Position numbers and translations under genes: made by a program
Notes under the pieces: model-generated
The model's database searches: none
Told to the model about the DNA's origin: nothing
Seen by the model: the letters and a program-made list of their open reading frames with translations, nothing else
From: Escherichia phage 1-6bf
Direction: 5' to 3' (one strand)
Sequence record: OR983334.1
Length of the DNA: 64,000 nt
Shown here: piece by piece, positions 13,914 through 47,526 of the stretch
Position numbering within the stretch: the first letter of the stretch is position 1
Layout: every line of letters begins with the position of its first letter

Positions 13914-14948
13914 TTATTGTATGCTTCTAAAAATCTTCCTAGCATCTAGTACTGGAACCTGAAGGGAGATAGCCCCACCACCACCCATATCGTAGTTTCT
14001 ACTCCACTGGAACATATATCGACCATACCCTGTGCCAAAAGAAGACCCGTTCATTATATGAGATCTTGCGTGTTGGAAATACCAACTACCAGCTTGGCCT
14101 CTAATTGAACCAGCCCCATTCGTCAGAGGAATCATAGGATAGGATAGTCCAGTGTCTCCTCCACTCATAGCCATAAAGCGATCAACCATAAAAGGTGTTC
14201 TGTAAGTAGAGAATACACATTGAGAACCATTAGGTGAGTAGATGTTCAATCCACCATTGTGAGTAGGAACACCAGCCCCATCACAGAACACTGCAACTCT
14301 CACATTGTTGATTGTACCTGTTTGGTTGTTGTTTCCATTGTCGTATGTTCTGTTTTGATAAACTCTGATATTACGACTCCCTGCATCGTACAGTAAACCT
14401 TGCCCTCCAGACCAGTTAGCAAACACAGAAGCTCTTGACATATCAAAACCACTGATGGCTGGTATTTGCATAGAACCATTAATGTTTCCTTCCCAAGCCC
14501 AAATACATTGACCAACAACCCCAGCATCTGATATAGAGAAGTAATCAGCTGTGTTTGAAAAGGTTATCCCGTAGTTTCTATTAGCTCTAGGCCATATTTG
14601 ATATACATTGAAAGCCACGTCAAACAATGGGTTACTTCCGGGATTCATATTTATGCTAACCCTAAAAGTTGAGTTATTCACAATACTTATGTTATTTACA
14701 ACATACACATCAGGGACAAGGTTAGGAGGGACTTCCCATTGCCAACACAAAGAGCCGGTTGGGACTACAACAATTTGGCCTGAGCCATCCCATCCAGAAA
14801 TAGGGAAATCTCTACTACCTCCATTAAAGTTGTAATTACCACTGACCCTATTCTTGAATTGAGGGAAAGTGGAATTACTATCAATAAAAATCTCAGCCGG
14901 AGAAGCTGGTCCCGGTCCAACTGGCGTTGTCCATATTCCATATGCCAT
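13914..14948 (-). CDS. virion structural protein (tail-associated, unassigned)
   Basis: 344-aa ORF with GGGAG RBS inside structural block. Confidence 0.45.
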   Translation of the reverse strand: MAYGIWTTPVGPGPASPAEIFIDSNSTFPQFKNRVSGNYNFNGGSRDFPISGWDGSGQIVVVPTGSLCWQWEVPPNLVPDVYVVNNISIVNNSTFRVSINMNPGSNPLFDVAFNVYQIWPRANRNYGITFSNTADYFSISDAGVVGQCIWAWEGNINGSMQIPAISGFDMSRASVFANWSGGQGLLYDAGSRNIRVYQNRTYDNGNNNQTGTINNVRVAVFCDGAGVPTHNGGLNIYSPNGSQCVFSTYRTPFMVDRFMAMSGGDTGLSYPMIPLTNGAGSIRGQAGSWYFQHARSHIMNGSSFGTGYGRYMFQWSRNYDMGGGGAISLQVPVLDARKIFRSIQ

Positions 14949-14949
14949 A

Positions 14950-15918
14950 TTACCAACTCCCTATTCTGATACGGAGTGTACCACTTCCATCATAAAAATC
15001 TATCCTGTTCCCATTCATCCATAGCTGAGAACCACCAGTACCACCCATAACAAAATCACCACCAACAGTCAATCTCCAGTTTGTACCACTCATAGAACCA
15101 GCGGTAATTTTATTAGCAGACAAACTCTGAATCTGTGCGTTTGTGATGTTGACATTATCAATTTGTGCCCACTGTATTCTAGCGTCAGCAATCATAGCAG
15201 TTGTAATGTTGACATTCTTTATGTCAGCAAACTCCATCTTCGCTCTACCGTTTTCAAAAACAAAAGGAGTGTTACCGGAGCTGCCATCACCAACAATAAA
15301 TTTGTTAGCTGTTACTTGGAATTGACTGTTTGTTCCGTTGTTAGTTAGCTTGACCCCAGCATATTTTCCGTTGATTGTAGAGTTAACACCCCACGTAGCT
15401 TCATACTCAGAGAGTTTCATATACTGAGAAAGGCTTCCGTTGATATTTTGAATCTCTGTCTGAACTAAAGCGATCTCTTGACCTTGGTCGTTAACAATCC
15501 CTTCTACCGTTTGAATCTTAGTTGTGTTACCTTCAATACTAGTTTTAAAGCCAGATACAGTGCTTTCTAATTTTACAGGAGGTTGAACAGAATTATCCCA
15601 AATATCTTCAGTGGATAAGTTCCCCATCTGAGTTTGGATATCTGCAATAGCTGTCTCTATCTCTGTAGTAACTCTATTCTCAAGCTCATCAAATTGTAGA
15701 TTCATCGCATGAAGAGCTTTGATACGAACATCAATCTCATCGTGAATCTCATCAATAGCTTGGAACATTTGGTTAGTAGCTGTACTAACTTTCTGTAGCT
15801 CGTCATATACGGCTACGTTATATGTTTCTGTGTCCTGTACATTATTGAGAAACCCAACGTTGTACGGGAGTGTGGTGTTATTACGACCAGTGTTCTTACG
15901 AAAACCACCTGCACCCAT
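14950..15918 (-). CDS. tail fibre-like protein
   Basis: GGAGGA RBS 5 nt before ATG (15918); C-terminal repeats DNVNITNAQIQSL resembling fibre/host-specificity repeats. Confidence 0.5.
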   Translation of the reverse strand: MGAGGFRKNTGRNNTTLPYNVGFLNNVQDTETYNVAVYDELQKVSTATNQMFQAIDEIHDEIDVRIKALHAMNLQFDELENRVTTEIETAIADIQTQMGNLSTEDIWDNSVQPPVKLESTVSGFKTSIEGNTTKIQTVEGIVNDQGQEIALVQTEIQNINGSLSQYMKLSEYEATWGVNSTINGKYAGVKLTNNGTNSQFQVTANKFIVGDGSSGNTPFVFENGRAKMEFADIKNVNITTAMIADARIQWAQIDNVNITNAQIQSLSANKITAGSMSGTNWRLTVGGDFVMGGTGGSQLWMNGNRIDFYDGSGTLRIRIGSW

Positions 15919-15939
15919 AAGTTCCTCCAAAACAATAAA

Positions 15940-15960
15940 AGGGGCACGAAGCCCCTTGTT
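15940..15960 (-). terminator. intra-operon hairpin (attenuator-like)
   Basis: GGGGCTTCGTGCCCC stem-loop followed by TTTTATTGTTTT on - strand between two structural genes. Confidence 0.35.
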
Positions 15961-15961
15961 G

Positions 15962-18900
15962 TTATCTCCGTCCGCCAACAGCAAACTCTATCGTTAACCC
16001 ATTGATAGCAGCATTACTGTTAACATCATTATCTATAACATTATAGAAAAGGTATGGATGGTTCAGTCTCACCGAGACATGTCTGTCAACACCGATTGTA
16101 TAAGTCTTAGATGTGTGTGGGTGTCCATATTCATTTGAGAATTGACTACCTCCAGCTTCAAAGGTATAGGTGCCTGAGCCAGTTGTCTGAGGACGGAATC
16201 TATTAACATGCTTCTGATTCCACTCATTCGTCACATTATCAAAATCTATACCAGTCCTCTCCAACCTCATTTCCAGAGGCTTCTCTATAACAGCATCATT
16301 TAATCTGTCATAGAAATAGTCAAGAGCGCCTACATCCACTTGGTAGAATCCCCTCAAGAATGAACCTACTATCGTAATCCTCTGTCTGAAGTTTGTTGCA
16401 TCCTTTCTCCAAACAAGCTCTTTGATCGATGGGTCATCCCAAGTGATTTCTTGGAAGTCAGCCCAAATTGGACCCCTTTCAAGGACAGGAGGATCAACCA
16501 AACCAATACACTGAGCATATGGGATAGTACGGAAAGACCAAGTATCAAACTCGTAATTCCATACAGCAGCTTTAGTACAAGCATAACTTTCCTTAGGCTC
16601 TCCCGGACCTACATAAAGAATCCAAACCTCCTTTTTATCTTGATGTAAGTGAACTCTGGTAGCTAACGGGTTGACCAGACAGATCTCATTAATCAGCATG
16701 TTCTTGACACGGTTGGAAGCGATTGACTTCTTAGTTGCGCCGTTATGTAAGATCACATCGTTCTGAGTAACAACGAAATGGCTACCTTCTACTTCAACTG
16801 CACACTCAGGAGCAAGGATACCAGAGTCATTAAAGAGTTTCTTGAACATCAGTGGTTGATACGTGTTATTAGTCGGAGAACCAATGTACGTTTCAAACTC
16901 CGTGTAAACGAACAAGTAATCTTTAAGAGGTAGGATATCAATCAAGCTGCCATTGGAGTCTGCTAAATCAATGTAACCAGCATAACCATTTTCCAGAGCC
17001 TCAGTCTGCCCAACTATGTTCGAAGCTAAGTCAGATGTTACTAAACGATCATAGGCAAAGTCATCCCATAGTGTAGGAGCTTTGTTCTCATTAGCAAAAT
17101 TAGACCAACGAAGACGAAGTGGGTAGTTAGTTGTAACGCCAGAAGCATTTGATTCCCTCATATTCAGGGCAAAGAGCCTGTTGTTAAAAGAACGAACTCT
17201 TTCACATTTCCAGTTGAACTTCTTAACTGAAGGATTCCCATCACTATCTACCACTGTTTGTTCTCCCCACCCCGGAAGATCAGTAAAATGTTCAGATTCG
17301 AATTCTTTTACTTGTGGTGTTTCATAGTGAGTTGTAGCAACTGCACAGTTTGATATAACAGCATGATACCAAGGATAGTCGTCAAACGCGTCATAATCCC
17401 TTTGTGTCATTTGGCTGACAGAACATGTTATGTTAATCTCACCTTTGCGAAGAGCTGTAAGTTTAATAGATTTACCAGTTACTGAAGTAGTTGAGACATA
17501 GCCAGTTTTGTCTACAGACCATAAGTACGAGTAGTCACCCTCTGGAGACGCTGTAGCTGTAATAACGATCTCCTCTCCTACATCAAGAGAAGCACTAACT
17601 ACATCTAATGTTACAGAGTCTAAAGGAGTGGCAAAAAGAGAGGCTCTTGCAAAACCTTCCATGTCATCAACGTTTGAATAATCATAGAAGCTATTTCCTT
17701 CAGACATTCCAGTAGTATCAATCCCAGAGGAGGGTGATGCAAAATATAAAACCTCTTCTGATTCAGGAACTACTACATCCTCGACCACTTCTGGAGCATC
17801 TGGTTCAGTAGAAGACTCAGCCATAAGAGAGGTTCTCATCATCCTTCCAGCCAAATCTACACGAACTGTACAGACAGCGGTTCTGTTGCCCTCTTGAGTA
17901 GTAGCAGTAATCTCAGTGAATCCAGCTGTAATTGCAGTGATGGTAGCCTCTGTGCTCGTACCAGACACTGTAGCAATATTCGGGTTAGAGGAAGTCCATG
18001 TTATATTTTTATTAGGAGCATTCGTTGGAGACACTGTAGCTGTGAGAATATATTGAACCCCTCTATTAATGGTAACATCTGTTTGACTCAGAGTAATACT
18101 ATCAATCTGTGGGATTACATTAACAATACATGATGCAGTTTTTGTTCCATTGTCTGCTGTAACAGTTGCTGTCCCTTCTCCATTAGCTACAAGCACTGCT
18201 GTGAGTGTGTTAGCATTAGGTGTTATAGAAATGATAGAGCCATTAGTAGTGGACCAACTTACAGAAGTTTTACCAGTCACCGCAGTTATGGTAGTATTTC
18301 CACCTTTACGGACAGTCAGAGTATCCTGACTCAAGAAAATACCTGAGTCTCCGTCAATAATATTGACAGCAATCTGAGCTGATACAGATTCATCTTTAGT
18401 CTGAACTGTAACTACGAGATTACCTTCTTTATTCAAAGACGTCAAAGAGGCTTTCTTAGAGTCAGTAGGGTCTACAGTGATCTGACCGTAAGAAGAGTTA
18501 CTAACACTCCAAACAAGTTCAGGGTTATTAGCATCTTCTGGAGAGATTGTAACTTCTAGAGATTTAGTTTGGTTGAAGTTCATAGAAATAGTAGACTCTT
18601 TAGGAGTAATCCTAGAGACTACAGGGTATATCTTGATATTAGCAGAAGCTTTTTTAGTGACCGTAGCAACTTTCCTGCTGATATCAGTTAAGCTTTCATC
18701 TGTTAGTTTATATAACTTCTTATTGGTTCCCACAATAAGAAAGCTATTACCTGCACTATAGTAATCGAAAGGCATAGATATGAAAGATAATGGGGTTAGA
18801 TCCTTATCTTCATCTACGTAAGAAAGAGGGGCATTGCCCCCCGTCTTAAAAACTCTCTGCTCAACAAATCGAGCGTTTATAGCGTTAGTGAAAGCGTTAG

Positions 18901-28583: not shown

Positions 28584-30827
28584 TTAGTTTTTACTTCCAA
28601 GACGTTTGCCTGGAATCCGTGAATCTTTGAGAGAAGCTTGTTGCTCTTTCTTAGTTACATTAGCTTCTTTCTTTTGGAGTTCCAAAGTTTTATCCTGAAC
28701 ACGAGCTTGCTGAACAATCTTCTCTTGGTCTACCTGATGAGACATAACCATCTGCAATTCTTTCAGTACAGATTCATACTGACGGACCTGCTGTTGCATA
28801 AGAGCTAACTTGTGCTTAGCTTGTTCCAGAGTAGCATTGTTATCTTCTTTACGGTTTTCCAGAGTCATTGCATCTGCTGCATTTTCTTGCTTGAATTGCA
28901 ACTCTTCCTGACGCAGACTTAATTCATCCGCAGCTTTCTGCTGTTCGAATGTAGTACGTTCACGTTGGTCGAATGCATCAGCAATCATCTTCTGAGAAGA
29001 AGCCTGTACGTTCTCAACCTGTGCTTTAGTCATCTCGAGCTGGAGGATTTCCATCGGAGAAGGTTCTGGAGGCTGATACTGTTCCAGAGGCAGAAGGTAT
29101 TTATGTGTGTCCTTAATGCCCATCAACTCAAAGATCTGTGCAGTCATGTAACGATCTTGCTCCAAACCAAAGAGAGGTGCTAACTGTGCATCTGCTGCAA
29201 TCAGCTGCTTCAAGCTAATCAGTTTCTGTGCACGTTCTGCTTTCTCATTAGGAGAAATGGCTACAACAACTTGAAGGTTGTGACGAGCTGGCAATTGTTT
29301 CGGATTTACCTGAATCATACCACGAGGGGTTTGTACCTCGATAGGAACTTCACCATTTTCTCTGATAAGATTGTAAATACCACGCATCAATTCAACCATA
29401 CCATTGTGAGCAATGTTACGACATACCATACGGAGACGGTTCTGTGCAGCATTCATCATCAAGCCTACGGTTGCATAAGCGTTATCATTCTTAAACACAT
29501 CAGGGTTGATACCCATGCCAAGTTTAGTTACACCTGTACGTGTCTCTTTAAGCTCCTCAGACATACCTAGGAGGCCATCAATACCTTGAGGTAAGTTATG
29601 GTATGGGAACAGGTCAATAGCGTCCTGACGTTCCATTTCAACCACTCCACCGGGACGGTTATCAAGCAGAGAGCGACGATCGTATGCACCAACAAGAGCT
29701 TTGTATCGACCATAGTTAGCATTGTTGACGTTATCAATATAACCACGAACTAACGCGGTACGTAAATCTTGAATATCTTTCGTAATGTCATAGACCGATT
29801 GACCATAGAAGGAACCCGGAATCGGATACGGGCAGAAGGTTACAAACGGAATGTGAGTCACTTCTTCAGTGTGAAGGATATGCTCACCAGCTTGAATAAC
29901 CTGATAGAGTTTAGACTCTTTATTCTTATCTAGAACACCAGTACGAATGTAGTGCTCATAAACCCAAACCATAGAAGCAATGTCTTCGGTATCTGTACCA
30001 ATATCAGCATCAATATCCTGACGCCAGTCAGTACGAGACCAAGCAACTGTAGATTGAGTAGTGTCCATCGTGTCTGTCCAGTCGTTGAATGCTTCAATCT
30101 CATCTTTAGGGAAGCCCATGGCAACCAGATCTTCTTTAGAACGACGTACACGATGGCAGAAGTATTGTGCATCTGCAAAAGAGGTAGCATGTTCGTCAAC
30201 AAAGATTTGCTCTGAAGGAACATATTCAACTTTCACACGTTTGACAGTTTGTTCGTAAGTAACTTTAACATCTACTGTACCATCTTCATTTTCTTCAGTG
30301 AAGATTTCCAGATTCTTGAGTCCACCAGCTTCTAGTCCCTGAACATATGCAGCCAATGCTTCCGGTGGTACACCTTCAGCCTCTTCAGTTTGAGTAGAAG
30401 TTTGCTCATCCCAATAATATTTGATAAAAGAGTTACGAGTAACCAGACATTCTTGTGCAGCAGAAGAGATAATATTGTATCCCGGATTATCACGCAGAAG
30501 AATTTGGTTAACTAATTTAGTTGCTACATCAGCAGCATCAGAATCCTGTTGGTTGTCAGCTACGAAAGTAACTGCTTCATCACCAGAACAGAATACGTTA
30601 ATAATATCTTGCAATGTACCGTTAACAGATTCCCAAACAGTACGATCTACCCAACTAGAGCTGCCAGCAGTTACTGGTGCAGGTAAGTTACCATAGAAAT
30701 ATTCCCAAGCTTCACGAGCATAGCCCTTAACAGCTGTGTCTACGTAGCCTTGAGCATAATTAAAACGACGTTGAAGGTCAACACGTAACTCGTCCAACAC
30801 CTCTTCACTATATTTTTGCTTAGCCAT
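28584..30827 (-). CDS. portal protein
   Basis: 747 aa, immediately downstream of terminase and upstream of scaffold/capsid; GGGAGAG RBS. Confidence 0.7.
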   Translation of the reverse strand: MAKQKYSEEVLDELRVDLQRRFNYAQGYVDTAVKGYAREAWEYFYGNLPAPVTAGSSSWVDRTVWESVNGTLQDIINVFCSGDEAVTFVADNQQDSDAADVATKLVNQILLRDNPGYNIISSAAQECLVTRNSFIKYYWDEQTSTQTEEAEGVPPEALAAYVQGLEAGGLKNLEIFTEENEDGTVDVKVTYEQTVKRVKVEYVPSEQIFVDEHATSFADAQYFCHRVRRSKEDLVAMGFPKDEIEAFNDWTDTMDTTQSTVAWSRTDWRQDIDADIGTDTEDIASMVWVYEHYIRTGVLDKNKESKLYQVIQAGEHILHTEEVTHIPFVTFCPYPIPGSFYGQSVYDITKDIQDLRTALVRGYIDNVNNANYGRYKALVGAYDRRSLLDNRPGGVVEMERQDAIDLFPYHNLPQGIDGLLGMSEELKETRTGVTKLGMGINPDVFKNDNAYATVGLMMNAAQNRLRMVCRNIAHNGMVELMRGIYNLIRENGEVPIEVQTPRGMIQVNPKQLPARHNLQVVVAISPNEKAERAQKLISLKQLIAADAQLAPLFGLEQDRYMTAQIFELMGIKDTHKYLLPLEQYQPPEPSPMEILQLEMTKAQVENVQASSQKMIADAFDQRERTTFEQQKAADELSLRQEELQFKQENAADAMTLENRKEDNNATLEQAKHKLALMQQQVRQYESVLKELQMVMSHQVDQEKIVQQARVQDKTLELQKKEANVTKKEQQASLKDSRIPGKRLGSKN

Positions 30828-35220: not shown

Positions 35221-35718
35221 ATGGCTAAAGCAATGCAGGTAGTTAATCTGGCAAGTTATGCACTAGTTGCAGCGATTGGTGTTAGTGCACTGGTCACATC
35301 TCTTTCTGATAAGGCTATCGCTAGTCCTACTCCTACTCCTGCAACTGATGCGGCTAGTGTCTTCTCTAGTTCCATCAATAAGGGTTGGATGATTTGTAAC
35401 GGTGCTGATAGTGATGGCACTTCCATCGTGTTAAAGATGAAATTTAGCAACGTTACTAATGATGGTGTTCTCTTTCAATCTAAAACGCTAGATAATCAGC
35501 CTAACAGTGATTTGGTGCTTAAGCGTACCGATAACGATATGGATATGGTGACATTTGGCACTGTACAACGTTATGAAGACGTTAAAGCCGTTACTAATCT
35601 TGTGAGTTATGGTCCGGTTAATGAGTCGATGATCGCCACAACTGTTTACAATAACGCTGACAACGCTGTTTATACTGTTCACGTTAATTTAGCCAACTGC
35701 ATTAAGGCTAGTAAGTGA
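35221..35718 (+). CDS. early secreted/membrane-anchored protein
   Basis: AAGGAG RBS; N-terminal hydrophobic segment VVNLASYALVAAIGVSALV. Confidence 0.55.
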   Translation: MAKAMQVVNLASYALVAAIGVSALVTSLSDKAIASPTPTPATDAASVFSSSINKGWMICNGADSDGTSIVLKMKFSNVTNDGVLFQSKTLDNQPNSDLVLKRTDNDMDMVTFGTVQRYEDVKAVTNLVSYGPVNESMIATTVYNNADNAVYTVHVNLANCIKASK

Positions 35719-35754
35719 ATAAATTAATTTGCCAATCTTTTGGGAGTATAAATA

Positions 35755-36006
35755 ATGGCTATTAAAGAAGTTGAATTATCTAACGACTTTTCTTGTTTTG
35801 TTGGCGATACTGCTATCATGTTTAATACGCTTGATGGTCAGCTTATCGTGCCTATTATCACTTTTTGCAAAATGGATTTTCAGTCAGCTAAAAAATGGTT
35901 GAAATTTGCTGGCCTTGAAATTACCCGTGCTGATTTTCGTGACATCTATATCAAAGGTGATTTGTCACTGGCTAACCTGTTAAGTGAAAGATTGATACAT
36001 GACTAA
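35755..36006 (+). CDS. early hypothetical protein
   Basis: 83-aa ORF with GGGAG RBS. Confidence 0.5.
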   Translation: MAIKEVELSNDFSCFVGDTAIMFNTLDGQLIVPIITFCKMDFQSAKKWLKFAGLEITRADFRDIYIKGDLSLANLLSERLIHD

Positions 36007-41154: not shown

Positions 41155-41544
41155 ATGTTGACATTGACTATTTATTATGAGGCAGGGAATCAGCCAACCG
41201 CATGTAAGGCTTTAGTTGCGGATACCGTGATAAATAGAATGGCCCAACGAAAACTGACCGCTGAACAGGTGATAAGACAAAAGAACCAGTTTGAGTGGAT
41301 TCCGGTACTATTAAAACAGGAGAAACCTTATAAACGTTATGTAAAGCTGATTCGTGATAAAAATCCGATGACTAAACAAGCCATTGGAGAAAGCGAGCGG
41401 TTAGCTAAACGTGCCCTTAAGAAGAATTATGTTCCTCTGTATAGTGGGACTTACTTTCAGAGTAAGAGCGAAGGGGTGCCAAAATGGTATGCCAATCCTA
41501 TGTATTGTGGTGATTTAGTGTTCGATAATAGCTCTAGGGAATAA
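41155..41544 (+). CDS. SleB/CwlJ-like cell-wall hydrolase domain protein
   Basis: TIYYEAGNQPTACKALVADTVINRMA and C-terminal YFQSK ... CGDLVFDN resemble the Hydrolase_2 fold; no close RBS. Confidence 0.4.
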   Translation: MLTLTIYYEAGNQPTACKALVADTVINRMAQRKLTAEQVIRQKNQFEWIPVLLKQEKPYKRYVKLIRDKNPMTKQAIGESERLAKRALKKNYVPLYSGTYFQSKSEGVPKWYANPMYCGDLVFDNSSRE

Positions 41545-41743
41545 TCACTAGTGCCAGATTTGACAAACTAAATTCCTTTATAAACCAACCACTTAGTAAA
41601 TTTATTGAAAAAGATGGCAGTATTCTGGAACTATGGGTAATGCTCTGTATATAGACCCTTTGAAAATTTCTTAGAAAATAAGTTTACTAAATATAACTTA
41701 CTTAAATAATATTACTTTTAATCTCTGATAAAGGGTAAATAAT

Positions 41744-42040
41744 ATGACTTTAGAAGTATATAAATTCCTTTTTGTAAGCTGTTTAACTATCAGCGTTCTA
41801 GGATTTATTATTCTCAGAAACAAAGCAGCAAGCTGGGAGAGAATGTATAAATCCCTAGTTCGAGTGGATGAGATGTATAATGAGAAAGTTAAAGTAACAC
41901 TTAACGATCTTATTATGCAAGTAGAGGACAGAAACAAGCGTCTTCAGAACCTCAACAATGAAGTATTACGCCTTGCTCGTGCTAATGAAGACTTGCGAGT
42001 AGCTATTGCTAAGCAGCAGGAGATTAACAATGAAGCATGA
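41744..42040 (+). CDS. membrane protein with coiled-coil
   Basis: N-terminal TMD (FLFVSCLTISVLGFIIL) then heptad-like region. Confidence 0.5.
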   Translation: MTLEVYKFLFVSCLTISVLGFIILRNKAASWERMYKSLVRVDEMYNEKVKVTLNDLIMQVEDRNKRLQNLNNEVLRLARANEDLRVAIAKQQEINNEA

Positions 42041-42287
42041 TATTAATACAGCCCCTGTAGTCAAGCAGCTGAAAGATCTGAAGGTGGGAAGTGTTTTTGA
42101 AACTGTGCCACCTAAAAATAAATTATATCTTACAGTAAAGCTAGATTCCTCAACCGTTTATTCAGCTAGTTGGAAGTCTGATGAAAGGGTAGTAGTAGAT
42201 CTCACTTCGGATAGAATAACAATGTTGAGAAAAGATACTGTTGTTCAGGTAGTTGATAATGCTCGACTTACCAATAAGGTGGATTAA
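42030..42287 (+). CDS. small early protein, paralog family 1 (member A)
   Basis: shares MK ... L..G.VF ... Y ... TG pattern with 7 other ORFs; AGGAG RBS. Confidence 0.5.
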   Translation: MKHDINTAPVVKQLKDLKVGSVFETVPPKNKLYLTVKLDSSTVYSASWKSDERVVVDLTSDRITMLRKDTVVQVVDNARLTNKVD

Positions 42288-42289
42288 AG

Positions 42290-42526
42290 ATGAAAGTTAA
42301 TATTAAATCCGATCGTACAATGCTTCGCTTAAATAACATGAAGCCGGGGGTTCTGTTTGAGTCTAAAGGGTTCTTTTACATTAGAACTGACAGTCTATAC
42401 GCAGAAAATTATGTGAACTGTGTTGATGTGGTAACTGGAAAGCTCATTCCTATTAAACGAGATGAAGTCTGCCAAGTACGCAGTGATCTCCACATAACCA
42501 ATATAGAGGCTAAAGATGAAGATTAA
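42290..42526 (+). CDS. small early protein, paralog family 1 (member B)
   Basis: same family pattern (MKPGVLFESKGFFYIRTD). Confidence 0.5.
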   Translation: MKVNIKSDRTMLRLNNMKPGVLFESKGFFYIRTDSLYAENYVNCVDVVTGKLIPIKRDEVCQVRSDLHITNIEAKDED

Positions 42527-42773
42527 TCTTGAAGTAAAGGAACCGTCTTTGTGTGTTGGTGATCTCAAACTTGGAGATGTATTCCAAATCAGGGAAACAC
42601 GAACAGATTTCTACATGGTTGTTCAGCTATTTACCCCACAGATTGAAGAGACCAAGCCTTCTGATGGTGGTTGTGTCGTCCTCAGTCTGACAAATAAGCA
42701 AGTCCTTAAGCTTAGATCGAAAAGCAAGGTTGTTCTTCTTCATGATGTTATTATTACCAACAAGGGTAAGTAG
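42516..42773 (+). CDS. small early protein, paralog family 1 (member C)
   Basis: same family pattern (LKLGDVFQIRETRTDFYMVV). Confidence 0.5.
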   Translation: MKINLEVKEPSLCVGDLKLGDVFQIRETRTDFYMVVQLFTPQIEETKPSDGGCVVLSLTNKQVLKLRSKSKVVLLHDVIITNKGK

Positions 42774-42992
42774 ATGGAAATTAAAGTAGTTGAGACTCCT
42801 AAATATGCAAATGTGGAAGATCTTAAAGGGGGAGATGTTTTCTCTTATGATCAAAAATTCTGGCTGATGCTAGATGATGATCTCTCTAATGGACTACGCA
42901 GGGCTGCCAATCTAAGCACTGGTTATGTTGGTAATTTCAATCCATCAACCACTGTTATGCCTCGCCCTGATTTGTATTTGACTCAAAAGTAA
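42774..42992 (+). CDS. small early protein, paralog family 1 (member D)
   Basis: same family pattern (LKGGDVFSYDQKFWLML). Confidence 0.5.
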   Translation: MEIKVVETPKYANVEDLKGGDVFSYDQKFWLMLDDDLSNGLRRAANLSTGYVGNFNPSTTVMPRPDLYLTQK

Positions 42993-43003
42993 CACCGACT
43001 TAT

Positions 43004-43120
43004 AGCCCTTGTGTTTATCAGAGGGCTATGTGAGGGTGTTCCTCATTAACTTATTAATTCAGGCATATGCCACACCGCTAGGGAGAGCTTGCTCGAACAT
43101 CCGGTGCTAGACTAAAACCT
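43004..43120 (+). repeat. conserved intergenic element, copy 1 (hairpin + GCTAGGGAGAG ... CTCGAACATCCG)
   Basis: TATAGCCCTT-loop-AGGGCTATGTGAG hairpin then GCTAGGGAGAG-N-CTCGAACATCCG; second copy at 48962-49095. Confidence 0.4.
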
Positions 43121-43350
43121 GTTAATTTTCGAAAGACTTTCTGATATGTAGGGGTACGTATTAGTTTGGGATTCAGGAGACTTCCTAGGGGTAGGGAGTC
43201 TTCACCAGTTGGAATAAGAGATAGCTCTAGAACCTGAACTCTTAGGCAGAGAAGGTCGGCAATGAGTACGCGGTCAGGATTAGTCTACTGACTAGGGCTA
43301 TTCCTTATATCAACTGGCAATAATGCCTCCACTAACAAAGAGAGATAGGT

Positions 43351-43491
43351 ATGAAAGTATCAACCAAACGTATGAACCGCCCTGAACGTATGGATGCAGT
43401 AGCTAACGGTGCTCTGAAACTGGAAGGCTTTTGGATTCATGCAATGTCAGCCATTCGTAACAAGCAAGGTGGTTGGACGTATAACAGTTAA
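43351..43491 (+). CDS. small hypothetical protein
   Basis: 46-codon ORF followed immediately by a strong terminator. Confidence 0.3.
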   Translation: MKVSTKRMNRPERMDAVANGALKLEGFWIHAMSAIRNKQGGWTYNS

Positions 43492-43500
43492 TAAATAAAA

Positions 43501-43529
43501 GGCTGCCTTCGGGCGGCCTTTGTTGTTTT
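43501..43529 (+). terminator. rho-independent terminator
   Basis: GGCTGCC-TTCG-GGCGGCC + TTTGTTGTTTT. Confidence 0.6.
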
Positions 43530-43572
43530 AATTAAGGGACAACTCTTACTTAAACTAACAAGAGGTGCTTAT

Positions 43573-43917
43573 ATGAGACGCATGGTTAAAGATTGGGTCA
43601 CTAAATCAGGTCTTCGTGCTGTGATTATGCACATGAACGACTCCCATTTTTGTGGATATGTAGAGCTACCAGACAGCTTAAAACATAAAAACTTCACCGG
43701 ATATAACGGAAAGGAAAAGGTTTGTTATGTAAGTGTTCATGGTGGTGTCACATGGCAAGACACCCTTGAAGAGATGGGTGGTTTAAATACAATCGGATTT
43801 GATTGTGCCCATGCAGGTGATAAGACACGGTTCAACCCTAACGGGGTTCCAAGAACAGAAGCTTTCTGCATCAACGAATGCGAACAAATGGCTGAACAAC
43901 TGAGAGATCTTGAATAA
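43573..43917 (+). CDS. hypothetical protein
   Basis: 114 aa, AGAGG RBS. Confidence 0.5.
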   Translation: MRRMVKDWVTKSGLRAVIMHMNDSHFCGYVELPDSLKHKNFTGYNGKEKVCYVSVHGGVTWQDTLEEMGGLNTIGFDCAHAGDKTRFNPNGVPRTEAFCINECEQMAEQLRDLE

Positions 43918-43918
43918 A

Positions 43919-44095
43919 ATGTCTAAGCAAACAATAAAACATACGCAAGCTGGTTACTCTTATGTCAACTCCCCTTGCTGCGGTGCTCGTATTAATCTGG
44001 TTAAGGAAGAGGTTCGTATCGTTCAGCGTGGCGCTACTGTTGTTCGTTCATGCTGTGTCTGTGGTAATGATATTTTTATCAAAGGTAAAGTATGA
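43919..44095 (+). CDS. small zinc-ribbon protein
   Basis: CC-GARINL ... CCVCG four-Cys pattern. Confidence 0.4.
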   Translation: MSKQTIKHTQAGYSYVNSPCCGARINLVKEEVRIVQRGATVVRSCCVCGNDIFIKGKV

Positions 44096-44343
44096 AAAAC
44101 TTTCAAGCTGCACCAATCACTAAAGTGATCGAAGTTGACGGTGTGATGATGACTGTTCCTCTGAACACTCGTTACATTGCAATTGACAAGATGGGTTATG
44201 TATGGGCTTGGAAGATTAAGCCTAGCTATAACGCATTGTTTGATGAGTTTGTTTGCACTGGTACGTACAGTCCTACATTCTTGGGTTTGTTTAGTGAGTT
44301 TGATGGTCAGTATAAAATCATCACTCTCCCTGCTTGTGCTTGA
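44092..44343 (+). CDS. hypothetical protein
   Basis: 83-aa ORF with ATGA overlap. Confidence 0.45.
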   Translation: MKNFQAAPITKVIEVDGVMMTVPLNTRYIAIDKMGYVWAWKIKPSYNALFDEFVCTGTYSPTFLGLFSEFDGQYKIITLPACA

Positions 44344-44350
44344 GGTTAAT

Positions 44351-44512
44351 ATGTTCAAGTGGCTAAAGCGTGTCTTTCATTGTCATGATTGGAAGATTAT
44401 TAATACTCGCCCTCTGGTCTATACAGATTCAGATGGGAATAACGACAAGGGCACACGTTACGTTATTCAGTGTAAGGTGTGTGGTGATGTTAGTCATCGT
44501 GATGTAATCTAA
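44351..44512 (+). CDS. small His/Cys protein, paralog family 2 (member 1)
   Basis: MFKWLKRVFHCHDW ... CKVCG; two similar ORFs follow in tandem. Confidence 0.4.
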   Translation: MFKWLKRVFHCHDWKIINTRPLVYTDSDGNNDKGTRYVIQCKVCGDVSHRDVI

Positions 44513-44521
44513 GGAATCATT

Positions 44522-44686
44522 ATGATCAAATGGTTCAAACGCTTCTTTCATTTCCATGAGTGGGAAGATCTTCATACTTATGAACTGACGATCACAAATA
44601 AACTTACTGACAGAGAGCGACAAGGGTTGCGTATCTACTCTCGCTGTAAAGTGTGTGGTCTGCACAAGAAAACAGATCTGATCTAA
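44522..44686 (+). CDS. small His/Cys protein, paralog family 2 (member 2)
   Basis: MIKWFKRFFHFHEW ... CKVCG. Confidence 0.4.
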   Translation: MIKWFKRFFHFHEWEDLHTYELTITNKLTDRERQGLRIYSRCKVCGLHKKTDLI

Positions 44687-44694
44687 GGGGTGTT

Positions 44695-44904
44695 ATGTTC
44701 TTTCGTAAGAAAAAGCCCGAAGATTCTGGATGTAAACACGAGTGGGTGATCACTGAGAACCTACATATCACCCACGCTAAAGACACTCCGGTCGAGAGAA
44801 AAGAATCTCGTGTATCTCGTATCTGTAAACACTGTTTGAAAATAGAACAGCATAAAGTTCCCGGTCATATTGGTCACGATGTAGCCATTCGTATCTTTAG
44901 TTAA
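44695..44904 (+). CDS. small His/Cys protein, paralog family 2 (member 3)
   Basis: CKHEW ... ICKHC, same spacing of H/C residues. Confidence 0.4.
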   Translation: MFFRKKKPEDSGCKHEWVITENLHITHAKDTPVERKESRVSRICKHCLKIEQHKVPGHIGHDVAIRIFS

Positions 44905-44927
44905 ACAAATCTAGCACCCTTAGCTCA

Positions 44928-45368
44928 ATGGAGGTGGTATTGAAAATAGAGTTGGAATACCCCTTCATCAATGACTGGAGGTTGGGGTATTTAAGGACAA
45001 GTAAGGATGGGAGGAGGCGTGTTGACCTATTCAATTCTAACACAGATAGGACTACGATCTCTTATGCAAGGTATTTAATGTCTTGCCATGTAGGGAGGTA
45101 TCTTACTGCGGAGGAAGAGGTAGATCATGTTGATCAAAATCCAACCAATGATGAGATATCTAACCTTCAGATTCTAAGCACAAATGATCACCTAAAGAAG
45201 ACCTTAGAGAACAGACCTAAGGGTGTGGTCATTACTTTGATTTGTAGTAATTGTGGCACATCTTTTGAGAGAAGGGGTAACAAGGTCCACAAAGAAAACC
45301 AAAACCATTTTTGTAGTAGGTCTTGCAACGGTAAGTATTACTGGAGCAAGGGTTTCAATAATAAATAA
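44928..45368 (+). CDS. HNH homing endonuclease
   Basis: SYARYLM ... HVGRYLTAEEEVDHVDQNPTNDEISNLQIL plus C-terminal zinc finger; abuts tRNA-like element. Confidence 0.7.
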   Translation: MEVVLKIELEYPFINDWRLGYLRTSKDGRRRVDLFNSNTDRTTISYARYLMSCHVGRYLTAEEEVDHVDQNPTNDEISNLQILSTNDHLKKTLENRPKGVVITLICSNCGTSFERRGNKVHKENQNHFCSRSCNGKYYWSKGFNNK

Positions 45369-45379
45369 GAGCTTCTAGC

Positions 45380-45458
45380 GAGGATGTATCTTCCCCGCCT
45401 TCTAAGCGGTCGTTAAAGAAGTAATTGGAGTATGCAGGTTCGAACCCTGTCATCCTCG
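45380..45458 (+). tRNA. tRNA-like element (possible tRNA-Arg UCU; cloverleaf not fully resolved by hand)
   Basis: perfect 7-bp acceptor stem (GAGGATG/CATCCTC), T-arm GCAGG-TTCGAAC-CCTGT, hairpin with loop CTTCTAA; D-arm non-canonical in my fold; no encoded CCA. Confidence 0.35.
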
Positions 45459-45481
45459 CTAGAGGCTCTTGGAGGTGTGTT

Positions 45482-45763
45482 ATGTCATGGGGTGGTGTAA
45501 TATCCTTAATCTGTATCTTCCTTGTCTGCATAGCCCTTACAGGCTGCGTACAGAGCCGTCCTGATGGATGGTGTGCAGTAGCAGTGGAAGGTGTTTGTGT
45601 TTCTCGCTGGCACAAAGGTGAGAAGGTTCCTTCTGGTGAAATTGATATGCGTTACAGTGGTATCTCATGCCTGAACGGTGCAGCAGTAGATGAGGAAACT
45701 AAAACCTTGTCAGATGCACAGTGGTGTGGTGGTTCTGTAACAACAACCGGTAAGGAGTGGTAA
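45482..45763 (+). CDS. lipoprotein (superinfection-exclusion candidate)
   Basis: GGAGG RBS; signal peptide MSWGGVISLICIFLVCIALTGC with lipobox LTGC; Cys-rich mature part. Confidence 0.55.
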   Translation: MSWGGVISLICIFLVCIALTGCVQSRPDGWCAVAVEGVCVSRWHKGEKVPSGEIDMRYSGISCLNGAAVDEETKTLSDAQWCGGSVTTTGKEW

Positions 45764-45764
45764 T

Positions 45765-46013
45765 ATGACAGCTCATTATTGGAATACAAAGAAGCTTCTT
45801 GAAGAGATGGCTGGAGGTAGTAGGGTACAGCTAATCTCCATGCTTCGAATGGATGCTCGCTCCTTACGCTTCCAAGTAAAGATTGGTAACTTCAGTGATG
45901 GCCTTTATTACACGCTGAAGGAAAGGATCAAGAAGACTCACTTCATCATGTACGGAATCAAACCGAGAACGTACGTTAACTACATGTATTGGAATACATG
46001 CTACGATAATTGA
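45765..46013 (+). CDS. hypothetical protein
   Basis: AAGGAG RBS. Confidence 0.5.
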   Translation: MTAHYWNTKKLLEEMAGGSRVQLISMLRMDARSLRFQVKIGNFSDGLYYTLKERIKKTHFIMYGIKPRTYVNYMYWNTCYDN

Positions 46014-46020
46014 GGTTATT

Positions 46021-46242
46021 ATGAAACTAGACTCTAAGCAGTCACTTAAAACCGCTGAACTGTCCACGCTGCCAAACGGAAGTATCTTTGGTCATGATAA
46101 ACACTTCTGGATTAAAACAGACATCATAGACGATGGGTATATTACCTGTGTCAACCTTTGGAATGGTTCAGTGGATGGTTATCGCCCTAGCGCAAAGGTA
46201 GTCCCTCAGCCCGATGCAAAGGCTATAGGTTTAGTTTACTAA
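46021..46242 (+). CDS. small early protein, paralog family 1 (member E)
   Basis: LPNGSIFGHDKHFWIKTD family pattern. Confidence 0.5.
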   Translation: MKLDSKQSLKTAELSTLPNGSIFGHDKHFWIKTDIIDDGYITCVNLWNGSVDGYRPSAKVVPQPDAKAIGLVY

Positions 46243-46251
46243 GGAGCCTGT

Positions 46252-46425
46252 ATGAGTTGTTTTGGTGGCGGTGAAGTAGATGACGATGATGACATGGAAT
46301 CAAACGGCACATGTCCTGATTGTGGGTGTGAGACATGGGATGGGGTTTCTGTCTACCCTGCCTGTAGTTATTCACCAGTAATTTGTAAAACATGCGGTGA
46401 TCAGCCGTGTGACCAGTCTTGCTAA
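46252..46425 (+). CDS. small Cys-rich protein
   Basis: 57 codons, AAGGAG RBS, 9 Cys (CPDCGC ... CKTCGDQPCDQSC). Confidence 0.4.
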   Translation: MSCFGGGEVDDDDDMESNGTCPDCGCETWDGVSVYPACSYSPVICKTCGDQPCDQSC

Positions 46426-47040
46426 GAGAATATTATGACTGAAGAATTTTTAAAGTGGTTTGGTGATACCTTCAAAGAGTATCTATTCTCTCCAGAAGAC
46501 TTTGAAGAACTGAAAACCTACACTTGGTTGGCTTGGAGAGATAGCCGACGAGAGATGAATAAGTAATATCGTGAAGGATTCTTACGAGAGTCCTTTGAGA
46601 TAGGACTTCAGATCTCCTATCAAACTAACATTCATGTAACTAGCCCATAAGGGCGTTACCCTTTAATAACCCAGCCCACTAAGGGGGCGGGAGTTTAGTG
46701 CTGGATTAGCATAACGCTTATTCCTACAAAGGCAACCGATTGTTAGATCTTACATGCAATACTAATTAATAGGATAAGGGAGGATTCGTCCCCTCCCCCT
46801 ATTTATAAATTATCAGGAGAGTACTCTAGCTGATTAGCTGTAGAAGGGAGGCCGATATCTACGGCGTGGCCCAGAGCTAGTGTACTCTCCTGATGAGGCA
46901 CCTCCTCATCGTGGTAAGCTGTGGAATAATCTTTACAGCAGTTACTTGAAGTAGCCTGTACGGCCCTCAGCAAAGAGTCCGGACGATATCTGAGTGACTT
47001 TAAAAACAGATGGAGCCAGGTGGAATCCCTGGCAATTAGT

Positions 47041-47186
47041 TACAGGTATAGCTTATGAGGCTCACTAATGCAGAGCCTACGGTAAAGCAGTCGCCCGTGG
47101 TCAAATGACCGTATGCCCATTGGATGCATTCCTTTGGTGATGGCTAGGGAGTCCGAGCGTAGGTTCGAATCCTACACCTGTAACCA
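47041..47186 (+). tRNA. tRNA-like element with encoded CCA (146 nt between acceptor halves; intron, long insert or tRNA-like RNA)
   Basis: T-arm GTAGG-TTCGAAT-CCTAC, acceptor 3' ACCTGTA + A + CCA; only perfect 5' partner TACAGGT lies at 47041. Confidence 0.35.
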
Positions 47187-47214
47187 AATCGAATAATATC
47201 TAATTGGAGGATGT

Positions 47215-47526
47215 ATGAAAGCACGAAGAACTATATGGACTCCGATGCAGATTGAAAATCTTCGGAGACTAATCAAAGAGTACTCGGTTAAAGAAGTTGC
47301 TCAGATTATGAATGTAACGGAGAATGCAGTTAATACAGCTTGCACTAAATTCGGAATATCAAGAGCTTCAATCCGAGTTAAATGGTCTGAAGAAGAAGAC
47401 CAGTTCCTTATCCGTAATGCTGGGTTCATGTCTATTCAGAGAATGGCTGACATGCTCGGTAGAAGCTATGCTGCTGTACAGAACAGGGCATGTATGCACC
47501 TTAATATTAGCCTCAAACTTAAATAG
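47215..47526 (+). CDS. tandem helix-turn-helix DNA-binding protein
   Basis: GGAGG RBS; two similar units (W.P..IENLRRLI ... SVKEVAQIM and W.EEEDQFLI ... SIQRMADML). Confidence 0.5.
   Translation: MKARRTIWTPMQIENLRRLIKEYSVKEVAQIMNVTENAVNTACTKFGISRASIRVKWSEEEDQFLIRNAGFMSIQRMADMLGRSYAAVQNRACMHLNISLKLK

Follow-up and report, generated by a model that had tools for sequence, protein, structure and literature searches.

An Rtp45-family lipoprotein of a phiEco32-like podovirus as a candidate LptDE-directed superinfection-exclusion factor

Introduction

What does a small lipoprotein, encoded among the putative early genes of a podovirus, do during infection? The question is raised by positions 45482-45763 of Escherichia phage 1-6bf (sequence record OR983334.1). 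The DNA analyzed is a stretch of 64,000 nucleotides of this phage, called the window here. A sequence-only reading of the window had proposed that this open reading frame (ORF) encodes an early lipoprotein with a Cys-rich mature domain and a role in superinfection exclusion (SE), with T5 Llp as the paradigm. The answer offered here is that the lipoprotein probably binds LptDE in the manner of Rtp45 and shuts out phages that depend on LptD.

The window is a phiEco32-like podovirus genome of the genus Kuravirus, Gordonclarkvirinae. The region around the gene is 99.9% identical to Escherichia phage 1-6af and ~94% identical to phiEco32, ES17, Paul, and others. The phiEco32 orthologue, gp106, has been annotated as "putative phage lipoprotein" since 2008, and the SU10 orthologue is annotated as "putative lipoprotein". 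The annotation as a lipoprotein is already known; what is new is a named predicted target and a gene resembling those of receptor-binding proteins (RBPs) beside the tail needle.

Results

Membership of the Rtp45 family

The protein has a full-length match to the Pfam family PF24052 ("Phage_lipoprotein"), with residues 3-93 on model positions 1-80 of 80 (E=1.7e-36). The score of 124.5 bits lies far above the gathering cut-off of 27 bits and near that of Rtp45 itself (128 bits). A direct blastp comparison gives E=4.6e-18 with Rtp45 and E=5e-16 with bas14_0026. When the PDB is searched by sequence with phmmer, the sole significant match is chain D of 9RPS, which is Rtp45 (E=7.9e-16; E=1.3e-23 with the family profile). 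On these comparisons the window protein belongs to the Rtp45 family. It also matches phrog_4281, a family of unknown function, and NCBIfam holds no family that matches the lipoprotein, Rtp45, or the DUF6453 protein described below.

Large protein collections give the same family. Ten close clusters, every one PF24052, came from a word-indexed search of 5.8 billion proteins. When 1.8 billion representatives were searched exhaustively with a hidden Markov model, some fifteen genuine clusters emerged, and all consist of small lipoproteins of 73-109 amino acids that share the motif RPDGWCA..G.C..W..G.KVPSGEIDMRY.G. Three long matches in the exhaustive search are repetitive proteins; these are artefacts and not family members. 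Across 21 aligned members, the lipobox Cys and a C-x7-C pair are invariant. A second Cys pair is limited to a few clusters, all the Kuravirus-type ones among them.

The gene, its signal peptide, and its conserved core

The gene runs on the + strand from an ATG at 45482 to a TAA at 45761-45763 and has 93 codons. The Shine-Dalgarno sequence GGAGG (45471-45475, +) lies 6 nucleotides 5' of the ATG and is kept in the alignment with phiEco32 and EK5. The reading frame and this ribosome-binding site are as the sequence-only reading described them. The PF24052 match and the conservation in phage records confirm that the ORF is genuine, far beyond chance.

The precursor has a predicted signal peptide at residues 1-21, which together with the predicted lipid-modified Cys22 occupies 45482-45547 (+). 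It begins with MSWGGVISLICIFLVCIALTG, and Cys22 (codon 45545-45547) follows. The lipobox, LTGC, is at residues 19-22 (45536-45547). The h-region is strongly hydrophobic, with a mean Kyte-Doolittle value of 2.75 across the last 15 residues, and residue +2 after the lipid Cys is Val. The invariance of the lipobox Cys among the 21 members supports the signal peptide predicted earlier. The mature part is 72 amino acids long, counting the lipid Cys, and contains four further Cys at residues 31, 39, 63, and 82, so the description of a Cys-rich domain of approximately 70 residues was accurate. All five mature-protein Cys are invariant among close homologues.

Cys22, Cys31, and Cys39 align with Rtp45 Cys20, Cys30, and Cys38. 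Between residues 26 and 61 lies a conserved core (RPDGWCAVAVEGVCVSRWHKGEKVPSGEIDMRYSGI; 45557-45664, +), where 22 of 36 positions (61%) are identical to residues 25-60 of Rtp45. The pair formed by Cys31 (codon 45572-45574) and Cys39 (codon 45596-45598) matches the Cys30-Cys38 disulfide of Rtp45. By homology, this core would be the strand and hairpin that contact LptD.

Past the core is a Kuravirus-specific loop of ~19 residues bounded by Cys63 and Cys82 (45668-45727, +), and the alignments show no such loop in Rtp45. The length and sequence of the loop differ among Kuravirus lineages, which have protein forms of 93, 99, and 108 amino acids. Residues 1-57 are nearly invariant. The window protein differs from the phiEco32 orthologue by one amino-acid change, and at least six changes between the two genes are synonymous. 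The ratio of nonsynonymous to synonymous substitution rates (dN/dS) against EK5 is 0.28, and nearly all differences between the window and EK5 fall inside the Cys63-Cys82 segment. The lipoprotein gene is under purifying selection.

LptD recognition and exclusion in siphoviruses

Rtp45 is a ~6-kDa lipoprotein whose structure on Shigella LptDE was solved by cryo-electron microscopy (cryo-EM) in a 2025 PNAS study (PMC12685063). Rtp45 sits on the periplasmic side, between LptE and LptM, and Cys20 is marked as its lipid anchor. Residues 30-35 pair as a beta-sheet with LptD residues 318-323, and Cys30 and Cys38 form a disulfide. A long hairpin reaches up the LptD lumen, and extracellular loop 4 (EL4) is shifted by up to 20 Å. 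Because EL4 is displaced, binding of the phage RBP is blocked. Exclusion by Rtp45 is described as steric, whereas that by T5 Llp on FhuA is allosteric. The same study reports that complex predictions by AlphaFold 3 (AF3) were wrong even for Rtp45, and that Rtp45 and the Oekolampad SE protein have 35% overall identity, with the authors assuming that the two act alike (PMC12685063). The 61% identity between the window core and Rtp45 is higher than this 35% between the two siphovirus SE proteins.

Several siphoviruses depend on LptD. Bas01, 02, 14, 18, 19, 20, and 25 cannot infect when lptD has small loop deletions, and the DUF6453 RBP of Oekolampad has been solved inserted in open-state LptDE. 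A 2026 preprint describes four unrelated RBP families at the siphovirus locus, each with one receptor (FhuA, BtuB, LptD, or YncD), of which the DUF6453 family is LptD-specific. In Rtp, the Dhillonvirus TheodorHerzl (Bas14), and the Tunavirus ISF002, the PF24052 lipoprotein gene heads a unit of two genes convergent to the gpJ-like tail-tip gene. The second gene encodes a protein of ~310 amino acids that belongs to Pfam DUF6453 (407-422 bits). In the LptD-dependent phages Bas14, Bas18, and Bas01, PF24052 members adjoin the DUF6453 RBP gene downstream of gpJ.

A DUF6453 protein and a gpJ-type tail needle in the window

A homologue of the siphovirus RBP is also encoded in the window. A tblastn search with Bas14_0025 matches 13914-14948 on the - strand (E=9e-10), a late-region gene for a 344-amino-acid protein orthologous to SU10 gp19 and homologous to Rtp44 and the Oekolampad RBP. 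The protein scores 88 bits on DUF6453 (PF20051; cut-off 25), and phmmer finds the Oekolampad RBP chains 9RPT, 9RPW, and 9RQI (E=4.5e-10 for 9RPT_C). An AlphaFold2 (AF2) model built from 32 homologues has a predicted local distance difference test (pLDDT) score of 85 and a predicted template modeling (pTM) score of 0.88. A Foldseek search of the whole PDB with this model gives 9RPT_C as the sole significant match (E=6.5e-12, probability 1.00, target-normalised TM 0.80), and the next match has E=0.16. Between the Kuravirus DUF6453 protein and known LptD binders, identity is only 23-27%. Orthologues of the window protein are annotated as "membrane protein" or "tail fiber".

DUF6453 proteins begin with MA(Y/Q)GI(W/Y), which is nearly invariant in 32 Kuravirus-type homologues. 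T1 ST32 (28607-28912), from an FhuA-type locus and otherwise unrelated to DUF6453, starts with MAYGISTW. The common start may be a docking motif for a J-type tip domain.

Directly upstream of the DUF6453 gene is the gene for the tail needle (14950-15984, -), the orthologue of SU10 gp18. Its C-terminal part is a gpJ-type "tail tip" domain that matches PF09327 ("Phage_Tail_Tip", E=1.4e-25). In blastp, the needle matches the last ~250 amino acids of siphovirus J proteins, including T1 J (8e-8) and Rtp43 (6e-7). The J-like domain is generic rather than LptD-specific, because the J of T1, an FhuA-type phage, was matched as well as LptD-type J; an LptD-type specificity of the domain is not supported. 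The cryo-EM study of SU10 identifies gp18 as the needle, resolved only to 15 Å, and does not mention gp19. By homology, each of the three components of the siphovirus LptD module (J tip, RBP, and SE lipoprotein) has a counterpart in the window genome.

Occurrence of the two genes across phages

By tblastn, the PF24052 lipoprotein family occurs in ~385 phage records. Close homologues of the lipoprotein (at least 60% identity) are in ~97 Gordonclarkvirinae-type records, and more distant ones are in ~290 further records. Close DUF6453 homologues (at least 60% identity) are in ~91 Gordonclarkvirinae-type records, and there is a more divergent ECBP2 type. The whole genome of FhuA-dependent T1, which served as a control, contains no PF24052 or DUF6453 homologue; its locus includes Cor and is organised in another way. 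Both genes are also missing from Salmonella phage 7-11, a distant phiEco32-like phage. This both-or-neither distribution is as expected for a functional pair. In CHD5UKE1 the lipoprotein region is nearly identical (94.7% at the DNA level), whereas its DUF6453 protein is only 69% identical. At the level of alleles, the two genes do not vary strictly together.

Klebsiella Webervirus phages carry both genes unlinked, ~10 kb apart. The uncoupling of SE and RBP genes is therefore not confined to Kuraviruses. In Klebsiella phage PWKp17 (2134-2361) and in PP738771 (20312-21184 and 30774-30992), the PF24052 lipoprotein is away from DUF6453, between endonuclease and Dam methylase genes.

The early block and its surroundings

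The lipoprotein gene lies among many small ORFs that are transcribed opposite to the structural and late genes. This block is stated to be of the early class in phiEco32, and coding sequences 69-125 of SU10 were assigned as early by homology. From its position and orientation within the block, the lipoprotein gene is likely early. The earlier description of the gene as early is borne out for its placement, and its timing is deduced from position and orientation. The phiEco32 gp36 promoter motif (TAATGTATA) occurs in the window at chance frequency, and no copy lies just 5' of the lipoprotein gene. Within the early block, at 43498-43521 (+) and 2 kb upstream of the gene, is a strong hairpin resembling a terminator (AAAGGCTGCC-TTCG-GGCGGCCTTT, then a T-run). 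The lipoprotein gene may require read-through or its own promoter.

Directly 5' of the gene is a degenerate tRNA-Arg(UCU)-like element at 45380-45458 (+), with flanks at 45365-45468. Its score on the Rfam tRNA model is 29.7 bits against a cut-off of 29, and ARAGORN makes no call. The element has 4 nucleotides in place of the D-arm and a 20-nucleotide insertion in the variable region, and its acceptor stem continues outward as an inverted repeat of ~20 bp. A normal tRNA-Arg is found at this position in phiEco32 and EK5. Just upstream of the element is an HNH homing-endonuclease ORF (44928-45368, +; phrog_14913, E=1e-54) that is not at this position in phiEco32 or EK5. The HNH insertion and the tRNA remodelling may be linked.

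Three tandem small ORFs at approximately 44351-44512, 44522-44686, and 44653-44904 (+) have N-terminal H-x-(H/W)-W and C-terminal CK(V/H)C(G/L) motifs. These look like paralogous zinc-ribbon-like early proteins. A crude regular-expression screen of all window ORFs picked only three: 45482-45763, a 43-amino-acid TTG-start ORF at 35771-35902, and 295-555. The last (+) encodes an o-spanin lipoprotein (MRKLNQFFIMSALVMSMSAC...) of the NJ01/phiEco32 o-spanin family of Kongari et al.

Discussion

Family membership, conservation of the core and of the disulfide pair, and co-occurrence with DUF6453 are established here from sequence comparison, and it is export, LptDE binding, and exclusion that we infer. 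The lipoprotein gene would be transcribed from the early-gene block. The precursor would be exported, lipidated at Cys22, and cut by signal peptidase II. The Lol system would then sort the lipoprotein to the inner leaflet of the outer membrane, since Val rather than Asp occupies position +2 (the E. coli "+2 rule"). Like Rtp45, the core stapled by the Cys31-Cys39 disulfide would bind LptDE from the periplasm. Its beta-hairpin would enter the LptD lumen and displace EL4, and LptD-directed RBPs could no longer insert. Phages that require LptD, such as competing Rtp-like or Dhillonvirus-like siphoviruses, would then be shut out of the infected cell and its debris. The phage's own progeny might be excluded too, if the DUF6453 protein is a functional LptD-binding RBP. 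The latent period of SU10 is 45 min, so exclusion would be useful. A paper on co-infection by SU10 and SU57 makes no mention of exclusion.

The functional idea of the sequence-only reading is thus supported, although on a different family and with LptDE as the predicted target. What carries the SE candidacy is homology to the Rtp45 family instead of general features. The proposal that the receptor is masked fares differently in its two parts: Rtp45 homology argues for an action on the receptor, and the predicted binding to LptDE from the periplasmic side argues against masking at the surface. T5 Llp, named as the paradigm, turns out to be an analogue only. There is no homology past the signal peptide, and the same applies to T1 Cor.

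Several observations weigh against an LptDE-directed exclusion function. The exclusion role of Rtp45 was itself argued from structure, and no plating assay is reported in the available text of the study (PMC12685063). The lipoprotein and DUF6453 genes are 31 kb apart on opposite strands, which departs from the adjacency seen in siphoviruses. A sigma-70 promoter scan of 41500-47500 gave 13 matches against 14.5 expected, no better than chance. The AF2 model of the lipoprotein (11 sequences) has a pLDDT of 48 and is unusable. Lys and Arg are absent from the n-region of the signal peptide, where Rtp45 has one such residue and T5 Llp has two; E. coli lipoproteins rarely lack both there, and other PF24052 members start with MKK.... 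The extra Cys63-Cys82 loop may also affect the predicted binding to LptDE.

The last of these points raises the question of whether the target is still LptDE. In a retargeted family member, the loop would confer specificity for another outer-membrane or periplasmic partner, or the protein would have a role unrelated to LptD. Such a change would suit a loop that is disulfide-bounded, hypervariable, and lineage-specific in the Kuravirus clade, a DUF6453 protein so distant from known LptD binders, and alleles that do not strictly co-vary, as in CHD5UKE1. It is nonetheless unlikely. The part of Rtp45 that contacts LptD, strand 30-35 and the hairpin, corresponds to the stretch of the window protein that is conserved best, at an identity above that between the siphovirus SE proteins, and variation is restricted to the added loop. 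A rather improbable alternative keeps LptDE as the target and changes the selected role to envelope manipulation. LptD would be held closed, and insertion of new lipopolysaccharide (LPS) and O-antigen would be stopped while the long infection runs its course; the phage might in this way, for instance, change the outer membrane ahead of lysis or leave infected cells and debris with less O-antigen. Rtp45 is bound to the closed state, and opening to the LPS-inserting state requires a movement of EL4 that Rtp45 would block (PMC12685063). Kuravirus infection is O-antigen-dependent, the latent period of SU10 lasts 45 min, and SU10 virions gave no detection of the putative cognate RBP. There is, however, no evidence for in vivo inhibition of LPS transport by Rtp45-type proteins. 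Tight coupling of the lipoprotein gene with the RBP gene in siphoviruses argues for exclusion at the level of the receptor, and the window genome keeps its DUF6453 gene.

The uncharged n-region would also be compatible with a protein that is not exported, i.e., a small cytoplasmic or membrane-anchored protein with a lipoprotein-like N-terminus. This is very improbable: the lipobox Cys and hydrophobic h-region are invariant in the family, other members have canonical MKK... signals, four conserved Cys suit an oxidising compartment, and Rtp45 is a lipoprotein anchored through Cys20 on the periplasmic side of LptDE (PMC12685063). An FhuA blocker of the Llp/Cor type is hardly to be expected, although some GenBank records name family members "Cor superinfection exclusion protein" and the general features, a small early lipoprotein of a lytic phage, agree. 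The PDB profile search brings up no Llp chain at E<=10, and PF24052 and DUF6453 genes are both absent from T1, a phage that uses FhuA. Homology to T5 Llp was rejected; Llp has no Pfam match, and its hhalign alignment with the family covers just 27 signal-peptide columns. Homology to T1 Cor was likewise rejected, with 17.3 bits on PF24052 (cut-off 27) from the signal peptide only and nothing further from hhalign or blastp. Membership of the Llp or Cor type is excluded because only the signal peptides align. Least probable of all, to the point of being negligible, is an outer-membrane spanin subunit (Rz1-like) of a lysis cassette. Such a subunit would also be a small, predicted outer-membrane lipoprotein, but the window protein is not proline-rich, its gene is in the early block, and neighbouring ORFs have no i-spanin features. 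The o-spanin orthologue of the window is at 295-555, and phiEco32 has its spanin pair at 35272-35768, a long way from gp106; this separate spanin locus excludes a spanin role for the lipoprotein.

Exclusion of LptD-dependent phages, the preferred function, can be separated from the receptor of the Kuraviruses themselves. That these phages use LptD is possible but somewhat doubtful. Kuraviruses need O-antigen, and ES17-resistant mutants lose it. Current models take the binding of short tail fibres to LPS core to be the terminal step, by analogy with T4 and the T-even phages. The literature searched contains no link between Kuraviruses and LptD. Shotgun proteomics of concentrated SU10 phage identified 34 proteins; these include all of gp16-18 and gp20-24 but not gp19. 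These points argue against LptD as the phages' own receptor.

A tentative picture, which we hold with less than even confidence, is that the siphovirus receptor-recognition module moved into a podovirus and was split. The gpJ-type tip would have been fused to the needle, the DUF6453 RBP would dock on the needle and insert in LptD, and the exclusion lipoprotein would have moved to the early region. With the exclusion gene in the early region, the receptor would be closed soon after infection. If true, this picture would replace the T-even-based assumption that short tail fibres supply the terminal step. It would also mean that a module for LptD recognition and exclusion passes between siphoviruses and podoviruses. 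O-antigen-dependent podoviruses would then have as a receptor a protein that is essential and highly constrained, which is attractive for phage steering.

In approximately one hundred Kuravirus genomes, a gene labelled "putative lipoprotein" or "hypothetical protein" gains a specific predicted function, with LptDE as the target. Therapy-oriented work makes use of Kuraviruses, ES17 and SU10 among them. Cells infected by a Kuravirus may turn refractory to LptD-dependent siphoviruses, which is relevant for the design of phage cocktails. The DUF6453 gene beside the needle is a concrete candidate for the terminal receptor step of Kuraviruses.

Comparison with known systems

Cor of T1, N15, and phi80 is, like the window protein, a small lipoprotein and is an annotated superinfection-exclusion factor, encoded near the tail-tip locus. 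It differs in that it is not a PF24052 member and is tied to FhuA-type loci without DUF6453. T5 Llp follows an analogous logic as a small early lipoprotein that acts on the periplasmic face of a receptor and changes its extracellular loops (PMC12685063). The target of Llp is FhuA, and its mechanism is allosteric (PMC12685063). Its gene lies beside the RBP gene oad, and its mature domain has no detectable homology to the window protein.

SE(Oeko), which is bas18_0026 of the Dhillonvirus Oekolampad, and bas14_0026 of TheodorHerzl are in the same family as the window protein. Both are shorter and have no second Cys pair. Their genes lead a two-gene cassette of lipoprotein and RBP that is convergent with gpJ.

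The closest known system is Rtp45 of coliphage Rtp (UniProt Q333D9; PDB 9RPS chain D). Rtp is a T1-like siphovirus, whereas the window genome is that of a podovirus. The Rtp45 gene is directly upstream of the RBP gene beside gpJ, whereas 31 kb separate the window gene, in the early block, from the DUF6453 gene. The window protein has the added ~19-residue Cys63-Cys82 loop and a signal peptide without a basic residue. The two proteins have in common the Pfam family, the lipobox Cys, the RPDGWC...G.C pair, and the VP(S/A)GE(I/V)D.RY.GI hairpin. They also share, by prediction, the periplasmic face of LptDE as target and a role in superinfection exclusion.

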